A stretch of 64,000 bases of DNA from Patescibacteria group bacterium. GTDB lineage: Bacteria; Patescibacteriota; Microgenomatia; UBA1406; GWC2-37-13. How positions within the stretch are numbered: the first letter of the stretch is position 1; every line of letters begins with the position of its first letter. The translations under genes were made by a program, and so were the position numbers. Below are positions 34,882-57,330 of this stretch, piece after piece. The notes beneath the pieces are model-generated. The model was not told the DNA's origin. It was given only the letters and a program-made list of their open reading frames with translations, and ran no database searches. Where the stretch lies: assembly GCA_041660785.1 (NCBI GenBank), contig JBAZVQ010000001.1, positions 689,538 through 753,537 on the forward strand, written 5' to 3'.

Positions 34882-37038
34882 TTAATTAACTTGATACAAA
34901 GCCCCAAAGCCATTAGCAGACTTAAAAATTAACTTGGCAATTTTAGTCCATTTTTCTTCATTCAAATTAGGGTATTTTTGGCGTTCCAACCGCGAGATTA
35001 TCACATATTTTATTTGGTATTTGTTAATAAGCGACTTAGTTTCGTCAACGTCCTTTGATTCATAAAGGGAAACAACTTCCGGGATTCTTTTCCCAACAAT
35101 ATCTGACGATCCTCGCCATAACCATTCATGCACCCACCAACCAGCGACCGTTGGTAGCCCAGTGAAGGCGGAGATCCTTTCATAGTCAGTGTACGAGTCT
35201 CCTTGGGCCTCCAAGATGACCGGCTGTCCCTTTTCATTTTTATTTAAATAGTCAATAATTTCACTATCTTCTGGATAAGTCTGTTTTAACCAAGCCTGTC
35301 CATTAAGTTCAATAGGACGATTAAGTTGACCGTAATATGAAGGAACCGAAAAGAAAGGGTAGATAGACGGAAAGAGAATAAAAATAATAAAAATTGTTAT
35401 AAACATATAATAGACAATCGATTTTTTGATATTTTTTAACAAATAGAATGTGACAATTGAGGCGATCCCCATCATGGTAAAAGCCTGATAACCAAGCTTA
35501 AACATAGTATTGGCTCGGAAGTGTTGAGGATAAATGTCTTTGATGTAGAAGAATTCCGGAATGATGGTTAAGAATACGCTGAATGAAAATAATATCAAGA
35601 GAAAATTGTTCAATTGTTTCATTGTTCCATCGTTCCTCTGTAGGGGCGAATCCTGCCTGCCGGCAGGCAGGGCGTGATTCGCCCTTTTTTTAATATATAA
35701 AAATATCAAAAATGAAATCCAAAAAAATCCCCATAAAATAAAAAGCATCCAAATGGGAGATATTTGACAGTTACCCGCCTCGAAAATAAATGGTCCAATT
35801 TTGCCGATATCGGTCAGGAGTTTAGGAGCGCAGTTTACCCCTATACCACTGACAAACGGTTTAAAAAACCAGGAAAAAGGTAAAGAAAAAATGATAAACG
35901 AAGCAAATAAAACCGCCGTATTAATAACAAATTTCAATGAAAAACCATATATAAAAAAGAAAAGAATTAAAGTTAGCAAAATATAAATTGGGCCGTCAAA
36001 GGCATTGGTCATGTAGTGAATTGCAGCCATGAAACCGAGGAAAATAGTATTAAGTATTAAGTATTTAGTATTAAGTATTCTTGACTTATTTAATTTATTG
36101 GTAAAAAATATGAAAAGTAAGGCTAAAGTTAATAATACAAATGGAATATCAAACACATGTCCATGCAAATCCGCAACTACGTATGAATATGATGGAAACT
36201 CGTGAATCGTGAAAGGAATAAATCGGGTGGCATTGGGATACCAAATGGAGGCTGGATTAAATTTTGCGAGTATGGTCCAAAAAGGGATCGGCGGTTTTTC
36301 TGTCGGATAGCCGGTTGTAAAGAGATAAATAGTATACAGATTACCACCGAGATTGACTAAATAAGCTCCAATCAAACCATAGATTACAGCTTTGAATTGG
36401 TTTAATTTTTGATCATAGCGTTTAATAATATTGATGATAAGCGAAAATACTTGAGTCACTCCTTGAGCAAAAATGGTGGCGAGGATAAGATTATAACCAA
36501 TTGAAGCTTTAACGTTACTAAGTTTTATAAGTAGAGCGCCGGTCAGGTGACCAAAGTAATAATAATTAATTGATTCGAGGCTATACCAAATATCTTTTGG
36601 AGGAAAAAATTTAGTTCGCAGTATCGAATTTATAAATCCAAAATCCATAAATTTTTCCAAGCCATGAATAGAAGGTTCTTGGGAGCGGATGAAAGTCCAG
36701 AAGAAAAGACAAAATACGAATAATAATTCTTCGAAAAAAATAATTCGTAATTCGTATTTCGTAATTCGTAATTTTTTGTTTTTTATATAAATAACCCAAT
36801 TAATAATTGCAAAAAGGCAGAGAGAAAATATTAACCCAAGACGACTAAAAGGCAGAATTTTGACAATTCCTAAAACAAAAACAAAATAACTGAGCAAAAT
36901 AATTCCTAAAGTTTTTGCAAAAGGATAGCCAAAATCAAAGCTAAAACTTTTAAAGACCTTTTTAGTTAAGGGGGTAAAAACAATACCGATAACGAGTAAT
37001 GCTAAATACCATTGAAGCGTAATTAAAATCCAGTTCAT
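34882..37038 (-). CDS. DUF2298 / Chlor_Arch_YYY-domain polytopic membrane protein (GT-C-like)
   Basis: About 20 TM segments, INYYYFGH motif, soluble C-terminal domain. Carries three embedded repeat elements (listed below). Confidence 0.75.
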   Translation of the reverse strand: MNWILITLQWYLALLVIGIVFTPLTKKVFKSFSFDFGYPFAKTLGIILLSYFVFVLGIVKILPFSRLGLIFSLCLFAIINWVIYIKNKKLRITKYELRIIFFEELLFVFCLFFWTFIRSQEPSIHGLEKFMDFGFINSILRTKFFPPKDIWYSLESINYYYFGHLTGALLIKLSNVKASIGYNLILATIFAQGVTQVFSLIINIIKRYDQKLNQFKAVIYGLIGAYLVNLGGNLYTIYLFTTGYPTEKPPIPFWTILAKFNPASIWYPNATRFIPFTIHEFPSYSYVVADLHGHVFDIPFVLLTLALLFIFFTNKLNKSRILNTKYLILNTIFLGFMAAIHYMTNAFDGPIYILLTLILFFFIYGFSLKFVINTAVLFASFIIFSLPFSWFFKPFVSGIGVNCAPKLLTDIGKIGPFIFEAGNCQISPIWMLFILWGFFWISFLIFLYIKKRANHALPAGRQDSPLQRNDGTMKQLNNFLLILFSFSVFLTIIPEFFYIKDIYPQHFRANTMFKLGYQAFTMMGIASIVTFYLLKNIKKSIVYYMFITIFIIFILFPSIYPFFSVPSYYGQLNRPIELNGQAWLKQTYPEDSEIIDYLNKNEKGQPVILEAQGDSYTDYERISAFTGLPTVAGWWVHEWLWRGSSDIVGKRIPEVVSLYESKDVDETKSLINKYQIKYVIISRLERQKYPNLNEEKWTKIAKLIFKSANGFGALYQVN
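35644..35684. repeat. GC-rich nested palindrome embedded in frame in the DUF2298 gene
   Basis: GGGCGAATC CTGCCTGCCGGCAGGCAG GGCGT GATTCGCCC followed by TTTTTTT. Encodes ANHALPAGRQDSP on the minus strand. Confidence 0.8.
36046..36080. repeat. Heptamer tandem repeat (AGTATTA x5, third unit AGTATTT) inside the DUF2298 gene
   Basis: Read directly from the sequence. Encodes LNTKYLILNT on the minus strand. Confidence 0.8.
36742..36773. repeat. Heptamer tandem repeat (AATTCGT x4.5, third unit ATTTCGT) inside the DUF2298 gene
   Basis: Read directly from the sequence. Encodes LRITKYELRI on the minus strand. Same TTCGTAA family as 41191-41236 and 57287-57313. Confidence 0.8.
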
Positions 37039-37057
37039 AAGAAATTATTATATAATA

Positions 37058-39169
37058 ATGAACAATATTATGGATTCAAAATATAGCCCACAACTAGTCG
37101 AAGAAAAAATCTATAAAGAATGGGAGGAACAGGGTTTTTTTACGGCAAAAATTAATAAGGGGAAAAAACCATTTTCTATCATTCTTCCTCCTCCAAATGC
37201 TAACGGTAATCTTCACTTGGGGCACGCCATGTTTACTTACGAAGACATCATGATCAGATTTAATAAAATGATGGGAAAAGAAACTCTTTGGTTACTTGGT
37301 CTTGATCATGCAGGTACGGAAACTCAGTTCGTGTTTGAAAAATATTTGAAGAAACAAGGAAAGAGCCGATATGACTACAAACGGGATGAGCTTTATAAAA
37401 TGATCTGGGATTACGTGGCAGAAAATAAAATCAACATTAAGAATCAACTAAAACGACTGGGATTTGCTCTCGATTGGTCTCGCGAAAAATTTACCATGGA
37501 TCCGGCTATTGTAAAAATAGTTTACAAAACTTTTAAAGATTTGTTTGATCAAGGCTTGGTTTATCGAGCCAATAAATTAATTAATTATTGTACAAATTGT
37601 GGAACGTCATTTTCTGATTTGGAAGTAGTTTATACGGAAAAAATTGATTCACTATATTACATAAAATATCAGATTAAGGAAGGCGGTTTTATTGAAGTGG
37701 CAACGACCAGGCCAGAAACATTATTTGGAGATACGGCTATTGTAGTCAATCCAAAAGATAAGCGATACAAGGACTTGATTGGAAAAACTGCAATCGTGCC
37801 ATTTGTCAATCGGGAGATTCTGATAATAGCCGATTCTTCAGTTGAAATCAAGTTCGGGACGGGCGCTGTCAAAGTAACACCAGCTCATGATTTTAATGAT
37901 TACGAGGTTTCTAAAAGACATAATTTGCCAATGATCCAAGCGATTGGCTTTGATGGCAAACTAAACGAAATAACTGGTAAATATCAAGGGTTGAGAATCT
38001 TTTCTGGAAGGCAACAAGTGGTGTCCGACCTTCAAACGGCTGGGTTAATGGTAAAAATAAAAGAAGATTATGCCCATCGTGTTGGGACTTGCTACCGCTG
38101 TGGTAAGGTTCTTGAGCCTCTCCCTAAAGAACAATGGTTTATAAAAGTGAAGCCATTGGCTGACAAAGCAAAAGAACTGATTGAAAAAAAAGAAACTGAA
38201 GTTTTACCAAAAAGATTCAAAAAAAGACTGACTACGATATTGGATGATTTTATCGACTGGAATATATCCCGTCAGGTTGTTTGGGGGATAAGGATTCCGG
38301 CATATAATTGTCGGTCAACCGGCAAATGGTTTATTTCGACTGAAAAACCAGAAAAGTGTTTAATTTGTGGAAAATGTACTTCTGAGCAAGATGAGGACAC
38401 TTTTGACACCTGGTTTTCGTCTGCCCAGTGGCCCTTTGCAACTCTCAAGACGGAAGGAAAAGAATTTTACGATTATTTTTATCCGACCTCGGTTATGGAA
38501 ACAGGCCATGATATTTTAAGAGCTTGGGTAGCACGCATGATGATGATCGGCTATTTTTCTACAAAAAAAACTCCTTTTAAAACAATATTTCTGCATGGTA
38601 TGGTTAGGGACCCTAAAGGGCAAAAAATGAGTAAAAGTAAGGGAAATGTGATAGATCCGATCCTGATGATCGATAAATATGGCGCCGATGCCCTTCGAAT
38701 TGCCCTTATTTTTGGAACTAAAGAAGGGGGGGATGTGTCCTTGTCTGAACAAAAAGTAGTTGGAATGAGAAATTTTATCAATAAGATATGGAATATGGGA
38801 AGGTTTATTGAGATGAATCAAAATCAAAAATCAAATATTAAAAATCAAAATGACAAAGAAAAAATTAAAATTTTAAAAGATCTTAAGAAAGAGTTTGAAA
38901 AAGAAAAGAAGCAATATTTAAAATATATGGATTCTTATCAGTTTTCAAAGGCATTGGGGTTGGTGTATGAGTTTATTTGGCATAGGTTTGCCGATTATTA
39001 CATAGAGCAATTGAAAGATGAGGTAATTAATGGTAATATAGAAGCTCTCGGGAAACTAAAAGAAGTGTATCTGGAAAATTTAAAGATGCTTCACCCGTTT
39101 ATACCGTTTGTAACTGAAGAAGTGTGGAAAGTGTTTAATGGCGAATCTATATTATTAAATAAATTATAA
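37058..39169 (+). CDS. valS: Valyl-tRNA synthetase (short form, no C-terminal coiled coil)
   Basis: HIGH motif [18 protein letters not shown] motif KMSKSKGN, editing domain [12 protein letters not shown]. An alternative ATG lies at 37070. Confidence 0.93.
38816..38858. repeat. ATCAAAA-type heptamer repeat embedded in frame in valS
   Basis: AATCAAAATCAAAAATCAAATATTAAAAATCAAAATGACAAAG encodes [14 protein letters not shown]. About 29/33 identical to 49226-49267. Confidence 0.8.
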
Positions 39170-40286: not shown

Positions 40287-40742
40287 ATGGACAAAATAGC
40301 TACAATCAAAACCGAGACGGAAGAGCTTTTGGGGAAAATGATTACTAAGTTTGAAGTAGAAGTTGCTGATGATGGTGGAGTTTTTCAGGTGATAATTAAA
40401 ACTGATGAAGAAGTTTCAACTGTGATTGGTCGACACGGAGAAACGATCCGAGCCATCCAAAAAATATTGGAAGTAATTCTTTATAAAAAATTTAATGAAA
40501 GGGTTGAGATCTTGGTCAACGTCAACGACTTTCGAGAAAAGCAAAAAGAAAGATTAGAAACGATGGCGCGTGAATATGCCGACCAAACTAAAGAAACTGG
40601 AACAGCTGGATACATAAGATCACTTTCATCTTATGAGCGAAAATTGATCCACGAATTTATCACCGCCAACTATCCAGAACTGACGACTTCGTCTGTTGGA
40701 GAAGGTAGAGAGAGACAGTTGGTTATTGAGGTTAAGAAATAA
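40287..40742 (+). CDS. jag: Jag/KhpB-type RNA-binding protein (KH + R3H domains)
   Basis: GRHGETIRAIQ (KH GXXG) and the R3H region ERKLIHEF. Confidence 0.85.
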   Translation: MDKIATIKTETEELLGKMITKFEVEVADDGGVFQVIIKTDEEVSTVIGRHGETIRAIQKILEVILYKKFNERVEILVNVNDFREKQKERLETMAREYADQTKETGTAGYIRSLSSYERKLIHEFITANYPELTTSSVGEGRERQLVIEVKK

Positions 40743-40798
40743 TACGAATACTGCGAATAAAGAAATGCGAATATAGCAAATTATGCTCATATTTGGTT

Positions 40799-41185
40799 AT
40801 GGGGAAAATCATATACCCAGAACTTTCGTATACTATTAATGGAATTTTGTTTAAAACGCATAATACGTTGGGAAAAAATTGTAGTGAAGGCCAATACTCA
40901 GATTTTGTTGAAAAACTTCTTAAAGAATCCAATGTAAAATATGAACGCGAAAAAATACTTCCGCCAATTTTTGATGGAGAAAAGTCAGGGAGAAATAAAG
41001 TCGACTTTTTAATCGATAATAAAATTATTTTAGAATTAAAATCAAAAAAAGTTATTTCGAAAGACGATTATTATCAGGTAAAAAGATATTTGACAACGTT
41101 AAGTAAAAAATTAGGAATAATAGTTAATTTTAGGTCTTCATATATCTATCCAAAAAGAATTTTAAATTCTTCAGCGAAAGAATAA
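40799..41185 (+). CDS. GxxExxY-family protein (PD-(D/E)XK nuclease fold)
   Basis: YPELSYTINGILFKTHNTLGKNCSEGQY ... VDFLIDNKIILELKS ... NF. ATG 40799 preferred over TTG 40793. Confidence 0.8.
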   Translation: MGKIIYPELSYTINGILFKTHNTLGKNCSEGQYSDFVEKLLKESNVKYEREKILPPIFDGEKSGRNKVDFLIDNKIILELKSKKVISKDDYYQVKRYLTTLSKKLGIIVNFRSSYIYPKRILNSSAKE

Positions 41186-41190
41186 GTTTT

Positions 41191-41236
41191 TATTCGCATA
41201 ATTCGTAGCATTTGCATAAATTCGTAGATTCGTATT
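41191..41236. repeat. ATTCG(C/T)A repeat block, inverted relative to block 40742-40790
   Basis: TATTCGCATAATTCGTAGCATTTGCATAAATTCGTAGATTCGTAT downstream, versus ATACGAATACTGCGAATAAAGAAATGCGAATATAGC upstream of the GxxExxY gene. Confidence 0.65.
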
Positions 41237-41278
41237 TTATGAGTTGTTTAGCTTGCCTAAAATTGATATATTTTTAAT

Positions 41279-49112: not shown

Positions 49113-49141
49113 TTGACTTTTAATGCTATTTTCTTGATAAT
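49113..49141 (+). promoter_or_regulatory. Promoter TTGACT-N17-GATAAT for the Clp ATPase gene
   Basis: TTGACT 49113-49118, GATAAT 49136-49141, ATG 49148 six nt later (leaderless geometry). Confidence 0.55.
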
Positions 49142-49147
49142 GAAAAT

Positions 49148-52069
49148 ATGGCCGACTATTTTGATTTTATTAAAAAACCACAGAACAATGCAACAGGTAA
49201 TTCGAATGTGAGCCCAGTTGGACAAGATCAAAAATCAAATATCAAAGATCAAAACGACAAATCAAACATTCCTTCTCCCGCTCCCACTATTCAAAATCCC
49301 ACAAAACCCGAAGTTAAAGTTCCCAACCAAGTAACCAAACAACCAACTAACCAAGCTACTAACAATTTAGATTTGATGACTCACTTGACTCAACGATCCA
49401 ATCGGGTCATGATGGCCGCACAAACAAAAGCAAAAGAATTAAAATCAGAGCTAGTCGATAGTGAGCATCTTTTATACGCTTTGACAACCGATAGTGAAAT
49501 ATACAACTTATTGGTTGAAATGAAGATCCAACCACAGTTAATTACCGATGAATTAACAAAAATTTATAAACGCGGAACAGTCGATCGAGTAGTCCAATTT
49601 TCTCCGAGAATAAAAAAGATTCTCAATGACGCTTTGGTAATAGCCAGAAAATTAGGATTTGAATTTATTGCTCCGGAACATTTATTACTATCGATATTTG
49701 AAGAAGGTGAAGGAGTAGGAGCACGAGTTTTGGTTAAATTAGGTTTAAATAAAGAAGACCTAAATAAAAAAGTCGTCGGAAAAAAGGAAGGGTTAAACGA
49801 AGAGGAAAAGAAAGCTGAAAGTAAGAAAAAATCGTTAGAACAGTTTACGATCGATTTAACCGCCAAGGCTTCTCAAGGGTTACTTGATGCGGTAGTTGAA
49901 AGATCGGCCGTTATCGAACGAGTTATTCATATTTTATCCCGTCGAACCAAAAATAATCCGTCGTTGGTTGGTGAAGCTGGAGTAGGAAAAACTGCCATAG
50001 TTGAAGGTTTAGCTGAAAAGATTGTTGCCAAAGAAGTACCTGAACCATTATTAAATAAAAGAATCCTTCAATTGGATCTAATGAGTATGTTGGCCGGTGC
50101 TTCTCACCGTGGTGAGTTTGAAGAACGAATGAAGGATTTGATTGAAGAAGTAAAAGCCAGCCAAGGTCAGATTATTCTTTTTATTGATGAAATCCACAAT
50201 ATAGTTGGGGCAGGTGCGTCAGGCGAAGGATCTCTTGATGCATCTAACTTTTTAAAACCGGCGCTTGCTCGCGGAGAAATTCAAATTGTTGGAGCAACAA
50301 CCTTAACTGAATATAGAAAATATATTGAAAAAGATCCGGCGCTTGAAAGACGATTTCAACCTGTTTTGGTCCCAGAACCGACAGTAGAGCAGGGAATAAA
50401 AATGCTTAAAGCCATAAAAGATAAATATGAAGCTTTTCATCGAGTTAAGATCCCGGATGATGCGATTGAGGCAGCTGTCATTTTATCGAAGCGTTATGTG
50501 GGTGACCGGTTTTTGCCAGATAAAGCCGTTGATCTTATTGATGAGGGCGCGTCAGCAGTTCGACTGCCTTTAATTTCACTGCCCGAAGAGATAAAATCTT
50601 TAGAAACAAGAATTGCTCAACTCAATCAAGAGCTAAAAGAATCGGAAAAGAAAACCGATAAAGTTAAGTCGAGAATATTGCGATCAAAAATAGATGAAAT
50701 CAACTCCGGTTTAAAGGAGAAAAAAGAAGAGTTTAGTCTTAAAAAAAGTCAGTCAACCGGGGTTGTAACAGTCGATATTATTAAGGACATTATTGCCCGT
50801 TGGACGGGAATACCTGTTGCAAAAATTTCGTCTACTGAAACAGAAAAGTTAGCTCATTTGGAAGATATTATTCACAAAAGGTTAATCGATCAGGAAGGTG
50901 CGGTAGCTTCTGTCTCCCAAGCGGTTCGCCGTGGTAGGGCGGGGTTAAAATCGGCAGTCCGACCAATCGGGAGCTTTATTTTTCTTGGTCCAACTGGAGT
51001 AGGAAAAACTGAGCTCGCCAAAGCGCTCGCCGACATTTTGTTTGGAAGTGAAGATTTGATGATTAGATTTGATATGACCGAGTACATGGAGAAACATGAA
51101 GTAGCCAAATTACTTGGTGCTCCTCCAGGTTATGTTGGTTATGAAGAAGGTGGAAAACTGACAGAACAGGTAAGACGAAAACCCTACAGTGTTGTTCTTT
51201 TTGATGAAGTTGAAAAAGCTCATCCGGATATTTTTAATATTCTTCTCCAGATCTTGGATGACGGAAGGTTGACTGATAATAAAGGTCGTACAATTTCTTT
51301 TAAAAATACTGTTGTGATTTGTACATCAAATTTAGGAACAAAATTGATTCAGGATGAAATGTTAAAAGATCAAATCAAAAATCAAAAATCAAAAATCAAA
51401 ACGACAAATCAAAAATCAAAAATTGAAGACGAAAATGACAAAAATAAATTCAAGATTGTAAAAGAAAAAGTCATGGTGGAGTTGACCAAGTTTTTTAAAC
51501 CGGAGTTGATCAACCGTTTTGATGAGGTGATTGTTTTTGAGCCACTAAGGTTTCAAGATATGGTCGAAATAGTCAAATTGCAGATGAAGGGGATAATTAA
51601 ATTAATTGAGGAACAAGATATGGGATTTGCCTATACAGACGAAGTGATTCAAGAAGTTGTCAAGACAGGTTTTGATCCATTATATGGAGCTCGACCTTTA
51701 AGACGGGCAATTCAAAAATTAATTGAAAATCCGATTTCCAATTTAATTATTGAAGGCAAAGTCAAACCAGGGGATTTAATTAGAGCCAGAGTAGATAAAG
51801 ATGAATTAATCTTTGAAATAGAAAAAACTGTTTATCTACCAAAAAATGTTAAAAATTATCATTGCCAGGCCTGTGGATGGGATTTTGAAAATGAATTAGT
51901 TATTAATTCAACAATTATTTGTCCAAAATGTTTAAAACACGGTGAAAAAATTTTAATAGTGGAAAAACCAAAATTACAAGATTTAAAAGTACCCGAACCC
52001 AGTGTCAAAGAAGTTGGTAAAACCACCGATTTAAAACCTCAGGAGAATGTTGACAAAAAAGTTGTATGA
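49148..52069 (+). CDS. ClpC-like class-I AAA+ unfoldase with low-complexity N-terminal extension and C-terminal zinc ribbon
   Basis: Two Clp_N repeats, NBD1 [12 protein letters not shown]2 GPTGVGKTE, short M-domain. C-terminal CQACG...CPKC. An alternative start is ATG 49376. Confidence 0.88.
49226..49267. repeat. ATCAAAA-type heptamer repeat, copy in the Clp N-terminal extension
   Basis: GATCAAA AATCAAA TATCAAA GATCAAA ACGACAA ATCAAAC encodes [14 protein letters not shown]. Confidence 0.8.
51368..51448. repeat. ATCAAAA-type heptamer repeat, copy inside Clp NBD2
   Basis: GATCAA (ATCAAAA)x4 CGACAAA TCAAAAA TCAAAAA TTGAAGA... encodes [26 protein letters not shown]. Confidence 0.8.
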
Positions 52070-57256: not shown

Positions 57257-57313
57257 AATTACGGATTACGTATTACGGATTAAAAATAATTCGTAATTCG
57301 AAATTCGTTAATT
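57257..57313 (-). terminator. Long imperfect hairpin of inverted heptamer repeats downstream of fusA
   Basis: AATTACGGATTACGTATTACGGATTA AAAA TAATTCGTAATTCGAAATTCGTTAATT. The arms are complementary apart from C/T differences. Confidence 0.55.
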
Positions 57314-57330
57314 CTTTAATTATTTAATTG

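Follow-up and report, generated by a model that had tools for sequence, protein, structure and literature searches.

Two essential genes of a Patescibacteria group bacterium, valS and a gene for a ClpC/ClpB-type AAA+ ATPase (Clp), carry A-rich heptamer tracts within their reading frames, and we consider it likely that these tracts are copies of a single dispersed DNA element of about 50 nt, the arm of a small cassette, which is harmlessly read through in essential proteins. Both genes are located on a 64 kb stretch of contig JBAZVQ010000001.1 (GenBank assembly GCA_041660785.1, positions 689,538 to 753,537; ~35% GC), which was analysed as a whole and is referred to below as the window; copy counts for the host genome cover this window only. 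The host genome is placed near the Microgenomates/Roizmanbacteria group. The element matches the A-rich terminal inverted-repeat arm of small hairpin cassettes with a PF05635 gene, and complete cassettes, gene-less arm pairs (intergenic A/U hairpins) and solo arms are scattered over uncultured bacteria that belong to many phyla according to their record titles. The window holds solo arms only, in sense orientation and in frame, at the inter-domain linker of the valyl-tRNA synthetase (ValRS), in the disordered N-terminal extension of Clp and in a loop of its second ATPase domain (NBD2), where they would be translated as hydrophilic linker peptides built of K, N, Q, S, I and D. We infer that copies arrive by copy-and-paste or by gene conversion between heptamer tracts, after which they would decay or be rapidly replaced. 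Most likely, the element is neutral "selfish" filler in these proteins rather than an adaptation.

Element copies in valS and clp

The valS gene (37058..39169, + strand) encodes a protein of 703 aa without the C-terminal coiled coil, whose nearest homologues are valine--tRNA ligases of Patescibacteria (best match 85% identity) and which matches PDB entry 1GAX with an E-value of 3e-176. Its tract starts at 38816 and reads AAT CAA AAT CAA AAA TCA AAT ATT AAA AAT CAA AAT GAC AAA. The first-pass annotation had correctly located its start and had let it end at 38858, while the 14 codons end at 38857, one base earlier. The solo A-rich arm copy as a whole covers 38814..38873 (+), is translated after (M) as 19 residues, and is recovered by an nhmmer search with the element profile at 38821-38871 (E 3.5e-8). 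Alignment with 1GAX (SRE---GFQAKEDTPTLAD) places it in the linker that joins the catalytic/stem-contact part to the anticodon-binding helices, in agreement with the location originally proposed.

The Clp gene (49148..52069, +; 973 aa) carries the element twice, at the two places reported earlier. Copy 1 (49226-49267) reads GAT CAA AAA TCA AAT ATC AAA GAT CAA AAC GAC AAA TCA AAC and belongs to a solo arm copy of the C variant AACGACAAA in the hypervariable N-terminal extension (49222..49271, +; 16 residues; profile match 49225-49267, E 4e-9). The longer copy 2 (51368-51448) has its GACAAA unit in a different frame and encodes IKTTNQ instead of DQNDK; it comprises a solo arm copy in the NBD2 loop between TSNLG and FKPELINRF (51368..51423, +; 19 residues in the other open frame; profile match 51372-51423, E 6e-10) and a partial second copy in tandem, which ends in ATCAAAAATCAAAAATTGAAGACGAAAATGACAAAAATAAATTCAAG (51409..51456, +; 14 residues; nhmmer E 0.004). 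Tandem Repeats Finder (TRF) accordingly reports a period-34 repeat across 51371-51442. An alternative gene call for Clp (P0123, 897 aa) begins at M77 (window 49148-49378); an 11-residue N-terminal block kept in all orthologues favours the predicted long form.

Comparison of the valS tract with Clp copy 1 revealed 29/33 identical positions in the core, that is four differences over 33 nt in the same frame relative to the repeat, so that the earlier count could be reproduced, and local alignment lengthened the match to 41/48. The earlier description of ATCAAAA heptamers with one variant unit was right about the heptamers and too simple about the variant, as the tracts contain ATATT/CAAA and xGACAAA units followed by a phase-shifted TCAAAAT..AAAAAT tail. 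Every copy in the window is coding and lies on the + strand; the nhmmer profile revealed no further copy elsewhere in the 64 kb on either strand, and thus none on the minus strand.

The three sites stand out clearly from chance. A 32-nt degenerate pattern gave 3 matches in the window and 0 in 100 dinucleotide shuffles, and a 56-nt profile built from copies of other genomes matched these sites only (E 6e-10 to 4e-8), plus the partial tandem copy at 51409-51456. Contigs of two groundwater sequencing runs from different studies (2018 and 2022) cover 38700-39000, 49137-49420, 51217-51400 and 51372-51700 with 0 mismatches. The valS copy and Clp copy 1 are each spanned by single contigs at the depth of the organism itself (~97 and 57 in the valS flanks), while Clp copy 2 is covered by two overlapping contigs, again with 0 mismatches. 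In run X1, a contig crosses the valS copy with 0 mismatches and the depth reaches 1500 at the copy versus 97 in the flanks. Summed word depth at the copies amounted to up to 15-400x that of the flanks across four aquifer runs, with 40-400x at Clp copy 2 and ~3x at Clp copy 1 in X1 and X2, and in run X3 the element depth was raised though the valS flanks have none at 90% likeness. Tens of contigs, their flanks unrelated, start or stop at 38820 and 38850-38870 in valS, and in Clp at 49227 and 49266 for copy 1 and at 51372 and 51421-51424 for copy 2. The loose contig ends and the raised depth together indicate that a unit of ~40-52 nt is massively repeated in these aquifer communities and that the positions named are its edges.

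Distribution in other genomes

A collection of species-representative genomes was scanned with the 28-nt degenerate pattern ATCAAANATNAAANATCAAAANGACAAA, which yielded at least 119 loci with at least 126 copies in at least 66 assemblies. The pattern fixes 24/28 bases and misses most complete cassettes, since those read ATGCAAAATGACAAA; all copy statistics given in the following (n = 126, 120 or 98) rest on copies among the matches listed. The consensus of ~50 nt is aaAATCAAAtATCAAAaATCAAAaATCAAAATGACAAATCAAAATtyAAAAAT. Judged by the record titles of the listed loci, carriers belong to more than 12 phyla, including many classes of Patescibacteria, Omnitrophota, Planctomycetota, Dehalococcoidia, Elusimicrobia, Nitrospirae, Actinomycetota, Latescibacterota, Edwardsbacteria, Chlamydiae, Aminicenantia, Deltaproteobacteria and WOR-3, with a locus GC content of 24-59%, and several of these copies reside on contigs of 80-417 kb.

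Beyond the bases forced by the pattern, conservation extends to a T (less often C) before GACAAA and to the phase-shifted TCAAAAT..AAAAAT tail with its sharp right edge. Heptamer runs of the same loci that do not match the exact pattern mostly continue with near variants such as TGACAGA, TGACAAT or TTACAAA. At unforced positions, identity was 0.63-0.72 within an assembly, 0.59 between assemblies and 0.26 in control flanks, which points to genome-specific subfamilies. A conserved TGACAAA core with a phase-shifted tail, and the same sequence in at least 66 assemblies, led us to reject a simple slippage microsatellite.

About two thirds of the listed copies are in no long reading frame and are thus intergenic, while 25/126 are internal to long open reading frames (ORFs), 24 of them in sense. 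The sole antisense copy is located in what looks like a spurious ORF at a locus of ~51% GC. Among the 24 sense copies, 18 are read in frame +1 (..QNDKSK..), six in frame +2 (..IK[MT]TNQ..) and none in frame 0, because frame 0 stops at the TGA of the element itself; at least five genes terminate at this very TGA. Likewise, coding copies are sense-only because TGA occurs in each of the three frames of the T-rich strand (TTTTGAT repeated). A Pfam match was obtained for 19/20 scanned hosts, the exception being a large Chlamydiae protein. The matched hosts include YchF, MetRS, IleRS, AlaRS, GyrB, KsgA, MnmA, GatB, transketolase and PurL, and further hosts are a 2-oxoacid oxidoreductase, a radical-SAM enzyme, a class II aminoacyl-tRNA synthetase-like protein, fumarase, a 5'-3' exonuclease, a UvrD-type helicase, an M16 peptidase and glycosyltransferases. 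The linker from the catalytic to the anticodon domain is the site of the copies in MetRS and IleRS, as in the ValRS of the window, and in GyrB and transketolase they are found at or between Pfam domain boundaries.

An inverted partner follows downstream, at a distance of 26-174 nt, in 37-42/126 copies and precedes in 0-1, and for 27-43/120 copies folding yields a long A/U hairpin of which the copy is the 5' arm, in some cases with a central GC hairpin. These hairpins strictly follow one polarity, in which the A arm is 5' of the T arm. A search of 14 hairpin-bearing loci at the Rfam gathering thresholds returned tRNAs only. The copies show a mixed orientation to their neighbouring genes (L+R+ 29, L-R- 20, L-R+ 6, L+R- 4), on which grounds a promoter or terminator reading was discarded, the distance heuristic used being noisy. 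A viral main home was also rejected, as 2.9 million viral contigs gave just five matches, all intergenic and on contigs of 54-56% GC.

These data support the first-pass proposal of a dispersed DNA element rather than convergent peptides: copies are mostly intergenic, are read in two coding frames and occur at 24-59% GC, and the comparison of orthologues described below points in the same direction. Our literature search found no paper describing the sequence of the element, its arms or solo arms inside genes.

Three further observations were made in the carrier genomes. The loci L015, L018, L039, L044, L085, L090 and L091 are titled "uncultured Gammaproteobacteria" at 26-44% GC, and all but L015 have a Microgenomates-looking gene content; the NCBI labels of these metagenome-assembled genomes (MAGs) are probably wrong. 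A Dehalococcoidales MAG (L010, 593-708) contains three tandem copies of a 44-nt unit that includes the element, ATCAAACATCAAACATCAAAATGACAAATCAACTAAAATYAAAW. In assembly CAKKPE01 (Hainich-H32-bin143-1; 50-55% GC), the element is part of a ~300-nt inverted-repeat unit with a conserved left part of ~120 nt (L002, L012, L033, L048, L080 and ~20 more loci), which is located upstream of purS, pdxJ, pgk, mscL, sdhA and Nramp genes with its T-rich strand sense and looks like a portable promoter or leader.

Relation to PF05635 hairpin cassettes

The left arm of a complete cassette consists of the heptamer array together with the start codon and the initial ~10 codons (MQNDKSKFKN) of a ~120-aa PF05635 gene (23S-rRNA-intervening-sequence/Avd-like), and the T-rich right arm follows directly past the stop codon, so that the arms enclose the gene. 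At L044, an A arm is followed by a 123-aa ORF matching PF05635 (E 3.7e-21) and by a T arm, and at L063 the N-terminus MQNDKLKFKNEF of the homologue is encoded by ATGCAGAATGACAAATTAAAATTTAAAAAT, which equals the right half of the element. A metagenome scan with an alignment of cassette proteins revealed 80 homologue loci, of which a typical one reads ...AAATCAAATATTAAATATCAAA ATG CAA AAT GAC AAA TCA AAA TTT AAA AAT GAA TTT ... stop, followed by TTTTGATTTTGAATATGTCATTTTAATTTTTGATATTTGATT. The AA[TC]GACA core was present at the 5' end of the gene in 29/40 homologues with at least 55% identity, in 2/16 at 45-55% and in 0/22 below 45%, and since its frequency falls with identity, the arm goes with one subfamily of PF05635 genes. 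With the element profile, 14 of 42 close homologues showed an A arm at the gene start and 11 showed a T arm past the stop, while nine had both. Among the fetched loci, further PF05635 genes have arms built from different heptamers, namely TTCATGC, GGGACAA, CACGAAT and GTAAGCT.

Conversely, a profile derived from the 5' ends of 19 cassettes (-45 to +33) matches the window at three sites only, 49209-49266 (E 3e-5), 38814-38870 (E 2e-4) and 51368-51422 (E 4e-4). The dominant coding frame +1 is the frame of the cassette ORF itself, and the valS peptide of the window resembles the N-terminus MQNDKEKFKN of L144, which also has the AACGACAAA variant of both Clp copies. The TGACAAA "variant unit" matches the gene start region of a PF05635 cassette and is not a degenerate heptamer. 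In the RNA of the complete L134 cassette, the arms are predicted to pair around the ORF with the start codon buried, both in the minimum free energy and in the centroid structure. As no inverted partner arm was found in the window, the copies there are solo arms, in which no stem is possible; they are best called solo-arm derivatives of the cassette, without ORF and without partner arm.

Turnover at orthologous sites

Comparison of the ValRS linker over 120 orthologues revealed a hypervariable segment, with related tracts in P0113 (16 residues) and P0120 (IKNQRSKIKTTDQKSKI) and quite different repeat-derived peptides in others. One valS orthologue (L120; 64% amino acid identity) contains a stretch that is 37/37 identical to Clp copy 1 of the window, and its element region is 46/58 identical to the valS copy, versus 69% across the whole gene. 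In the closest valS orthologue (L122; 79% nucleotide identity), the tract is more diverged than its surroundings, with 45/62 identical positions versus 250/300 in the flanks.

The NBD2 loop of Clp occurs in several states even among close orthologues (85-87% amino acid identity). Empty sites have short loops QDEMMKKKYKDDKDKNSF, being shorter by net 48 nt in L123; other orthologues contain ATCAAAA-type copies, and L126 has an ATCCAAA variant in which the ATGACAAATC core is kept and followed by a GC hairpin. Further orthologues carry other repeats, PASAKASAGKQKSK and NVGVGRDRPxQKSK, both of which are also found in the ValRS linker of other genomes. In related populations of the same aquifer the loop is 66 and 90 nt shorter. 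In the N-terminal extension, two 14-residue blocks, conserved at the protein and DNA level, flank the hypervariable segment, and because these blocks are conserved in orthologues the region is taken to be translated; a co-occurring relative has a different 203-nt segment at this site.

As orthologues mostly carry some repeat-derived segment in these loops, the sites appear to be recurrent landing or turnover spots. In the ortholog alignment suggested in the first-pass annotation, the empty, diverged and otherwise filled sites support turnover.

Beyond the element itself, several repeat peptides recur at the loops of both proteins (VVEQFIAP..NGAMNRTTT, RHSGE..DSGQARMT and PDQVRNDK in addition to the two named above) in orthologues such as P0004, P0061, P0072, P0075, P0128, P0131, P0135, P0169 and others, and several of them are encoded by GC hairpins with a GTAG-like head. 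The Clp orthologues P0191, P0193 and P0197 and other forms of 1250-1490 aa have a folded-looking insertion of ~280 aa in the NBD2 loop. Dispersed repeats of many kinds seem to gather in the ValRS and Clp loops.

Comparison with known repeat systems

The closest relative in terms of gene content is the intervening sequence (IVS) in the 23S rRNA of Coxiella, which comprises 428 nt with a 28-bp terminal stem, a PF05635 (S23p) ORF in the loop and excision by RNase III, and whose scattered distribution was taken to suggest horizontal transfer (PMC4990558). PF05635 ORFs are further known from rRNA insertions in bacteria of the candidate phyla radiation (PMC11270868), and the family resembles the Avd protein of diversity-generating retroelements (PMC10053308). 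The cassettes described here share with the IVS of Coxiella burnetii and Leptospira a small ORF of the same Pfam family, pairing terminal inverted repeats and a scattered distribution. In contrast to the IVS, they are located between ordinary genes instead of within rRNA, they have arms of A/T-only tandem heptamers with the start codon included, and the window has solo arms in protein genes, with neither ORF nor stem.

Rickettsia palindromic elements (RPE), reportedly described by Ogata et al. in 2000, are palindromes of 100-150 nt that are known only from Rickettsia. Like RPE, the element is a short dispersed repeat that is tolerated in frame in essential genes, is presumably translated as a surface segment and is also found in intergenic regions. 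Unlike RPE, its coding copies are non-palindromic half-elements of ~50 nt, its hosts are Patescibacteria and other phyla, and an ORF-bearing parent form exists.

With repetitive extragenic palindromes and their hairpin-forming doublets (REP/REPINs; PMC3116915) and MITEs (miniature inverted-repeat transposable elements; PMC3184786), it has in common a non-autonomous character, mostly intergenic inverted doublets, hairpins, singleton derivatives and genome-specific subfamilies. In contrast to REP/REPINs, the consensus lacks a GTAG head, and neither RAYT nor another transposase was found near the 119 listed loci. The terminal inverted repeats of MITEs are shared by the intergenic arm pairs only; the parent encodes a four-helix-bundle protein of the PF05635 family and no known transposase, and no duplication is visible at the filled/empty Clp pair.

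The cyanobacterial STRR heptamers are another case of dispersed heptamer direct repeats. TAACTGA heptamer repeats are found in Beggiatoaceae, cyanobacteria and Bacteroidetes, with no evident transfer mechanism (PMC4679880). They resemble the element in their short tandem 7-nt arrays, in a unit common to distant phyla and in arrays that are often located just 5' of start codons; the element differs in the sequence of its unit, in that its core and tail are fixed and not repetitive, and in having a hairpin partner and a parent cassette, whereas TAACTGA arrays have stops and are mostly non-coding. The tandem repeats of Borgs (PMC9879509) are likewise in-gene repeat DNA translated to fast-evolving, disordered low-complexity segments. 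They are reported to be perfect tandem repeats of independent origin at each locus, unlike the one defined sequence found here across unrelated genes and genomes.

Evaluation of the proposed origin

Several points weigh against the proposed origin of the tracts. The element does not behave as a pure insertion in valS, as had been assumed earlier, and instead replaces the linker with a net gain of three residues relative to the T. thermophilus ValRS. The KsgA tract presumably likewise replaces a loop of similar length, as judged by eye against the E. coli and B. subtilis sequences. Such loop replacement fits conversion better than insertion, and no target-site duplication was observed at the one filled/empty Clp pair examined. 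No copying enzyme or mechanism was identified in the neighbour genes, the viral contigs and this filled/empty pair, and clustering of 1085 ORFs from the 119 listed loci revealed housekeeping families and no recurring neighbour protein family. As for the parent cassette, a jackhmmer search over all window ORFs of at least 80 aa revealed no PF05635 homologue in the window, and L044 is the only cassette that matches the strict pattern, the link being otherwise one of profile similarity (E 3e-5 to 4e-4). Part of the identity of 0.59 between assemblies is due to composition, with 24/28 bases forced and an element of ~75% A. The breadth across phyla is based on MAG record titles, some of which are doubtful; for instance, the "Gammaproteobacteria" locus L015 has flanks homologous to those of the Roizmanbacteria locus L017. 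Finally, we infer translation of the tracts from the conserved frames in essential genes, and a look for RNA sequencing runs containing the Clp gene found none.

Three other explanations were considered. The heptamer array with its TGACAAA core could be a selected, functional rather than selfish module that acts in cis as a binding array or RNA signal, for which a ribbon-helix-helix or four-helix-bundle protein, RNase III, an UP-element or a signal in the 5' untranslated region are candidates, and in this case the cassette arms, the hairpins between genes and perhaps even the intragenic copies would be functional. Such a role is in line with a sequence kept across very different genomes, with the strict hairpin polarity, with the 17/98 copies that adjoin the stop codon of the upstream gene, and with the one genome of 50-55% GC in which a repeat of at least ~120 nt is located 30-100 nt upstream of unrelated housekeeping genes. 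However, orientation to the neighbour genes is mixed, the genome-specific subfamilies resemble amplification, the coding copies have no partner arm and decay fast between close orthologues, and no Rfam family matches, and we thus regard this explanation as unlikely. Alternatively, the tracts might be ancestral A-rich K/N/Q linkers that arose by heptamer slippage and were homogenised by gene conversion, with no mobile element involved. Nearly all ValRS orthologues have a low-complexity segment in the linker, many of them related (IKDQRSKIKDTNKKSKI and similar), the closest valS orthologue holds its diverged heptamer tract at the same place, and slippage by three units preserves the frame, as three heptamers amount to 21 nt. 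Ancestral linkers leave unexplained, however, the intergenic majority, the hairpin partners, the loci of 50-59% GC and the conserved non-repeat TGACAAATCAAAAT..AAAAAT tail, which is identical to PF05635 gene starts, and they do not account for empty Clp sites in orthologues at 85-87% amino acid identity. Being already contradicted by the intergenic and cross-genome copies, this origin is considered very unlikely.

An artefact, in which low-complexity k-mers joined unrelated reads during assembly or sequencing, is the third explanation, which the first-pass annotation had named as a way in which its proposal could fail. Logan contigs do break within Clp copy 2, so that its k-mers must be repeated, but single contigs from two independent studies cross the valS copy and Clp copy 1 with 0 mismatches at the organism's own depth, all three sites are exactly reproduced, the reading frame of the essential genes is intact in every copy, and related tracts are present in orthologues of many other samples; the probability of an artefact is therefore negligible. 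Copies of a dispersed cassette arm thus remain the likely origin of the window tracts.

Other heptamer arrays in the window

Apart from the element, a gene for a 130-aa PD-(D/E)XK_3 protein (PF13366, "GxxExxY"; 40793-41185) is situated between jag and the next gene (window 40735-41240) and is bracketed by inverted heptamer arrays of the ACGAATA/TGCGAAT type (40740-40775 and 41190-41236). The locus is a second hairpin cassette around a small gene, and its heptamers differ from those of the element. In frame within the DUF2298 gene (34882-37038, minus strand) are TAATTCG x4.7 (36741-36773) and AGTATTA x4.9 (36046-36079), and since the PDDEXK_3 cassette arms are matched by the TAATTCG/ATTCGTA unit, this second heptamer family of the window also has a solo in-gene copy. 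A gene-less inverted pair, with ATTACGG/ATTACGT facing TAATTCG units, is located between two minus-strand genes at 57258-57314 and folds as a hairpin (-19.8 kcal/mol, z -4.2).

Implications

Tentatively, as we hold it to be rather unlikely, PF05635 genes with tandem-heptamer inverted arms might represent a distinct class of mobile cassettes that spans phyla and whose ends are copied alone into new sites, for example by means of the encoded protein binding the heptad array or of a reverse transcriptase acting in trans. If this were true, a single process would have three outcomes, namely 23S rRNA intervening sequences, A/U hairpins without a gene and linker peptides in frame.

For the K/N/Q-rich tracts in essential proteins of Patescibacteria, the likely origin described here would provide a concrete source, namely half-copies of hairpin cassettes and not home-grown low complexity, and would connect such tracts with the PF05635 "intervening sequence" genes, which have long gone unexplained. 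In practical terms, metagenome contigs break at the tracts, which can also lead homology and annotation pipelines astray. The copies also mark permissive insertion sites in ValRS, IleRS, MetRS, Clp, GyrB, GatB, KsgA and other enzymes, and a short sequence that is nearly unchanged across aquifer phyla of differing GC content implies an unrecognised route of horizontal spread.

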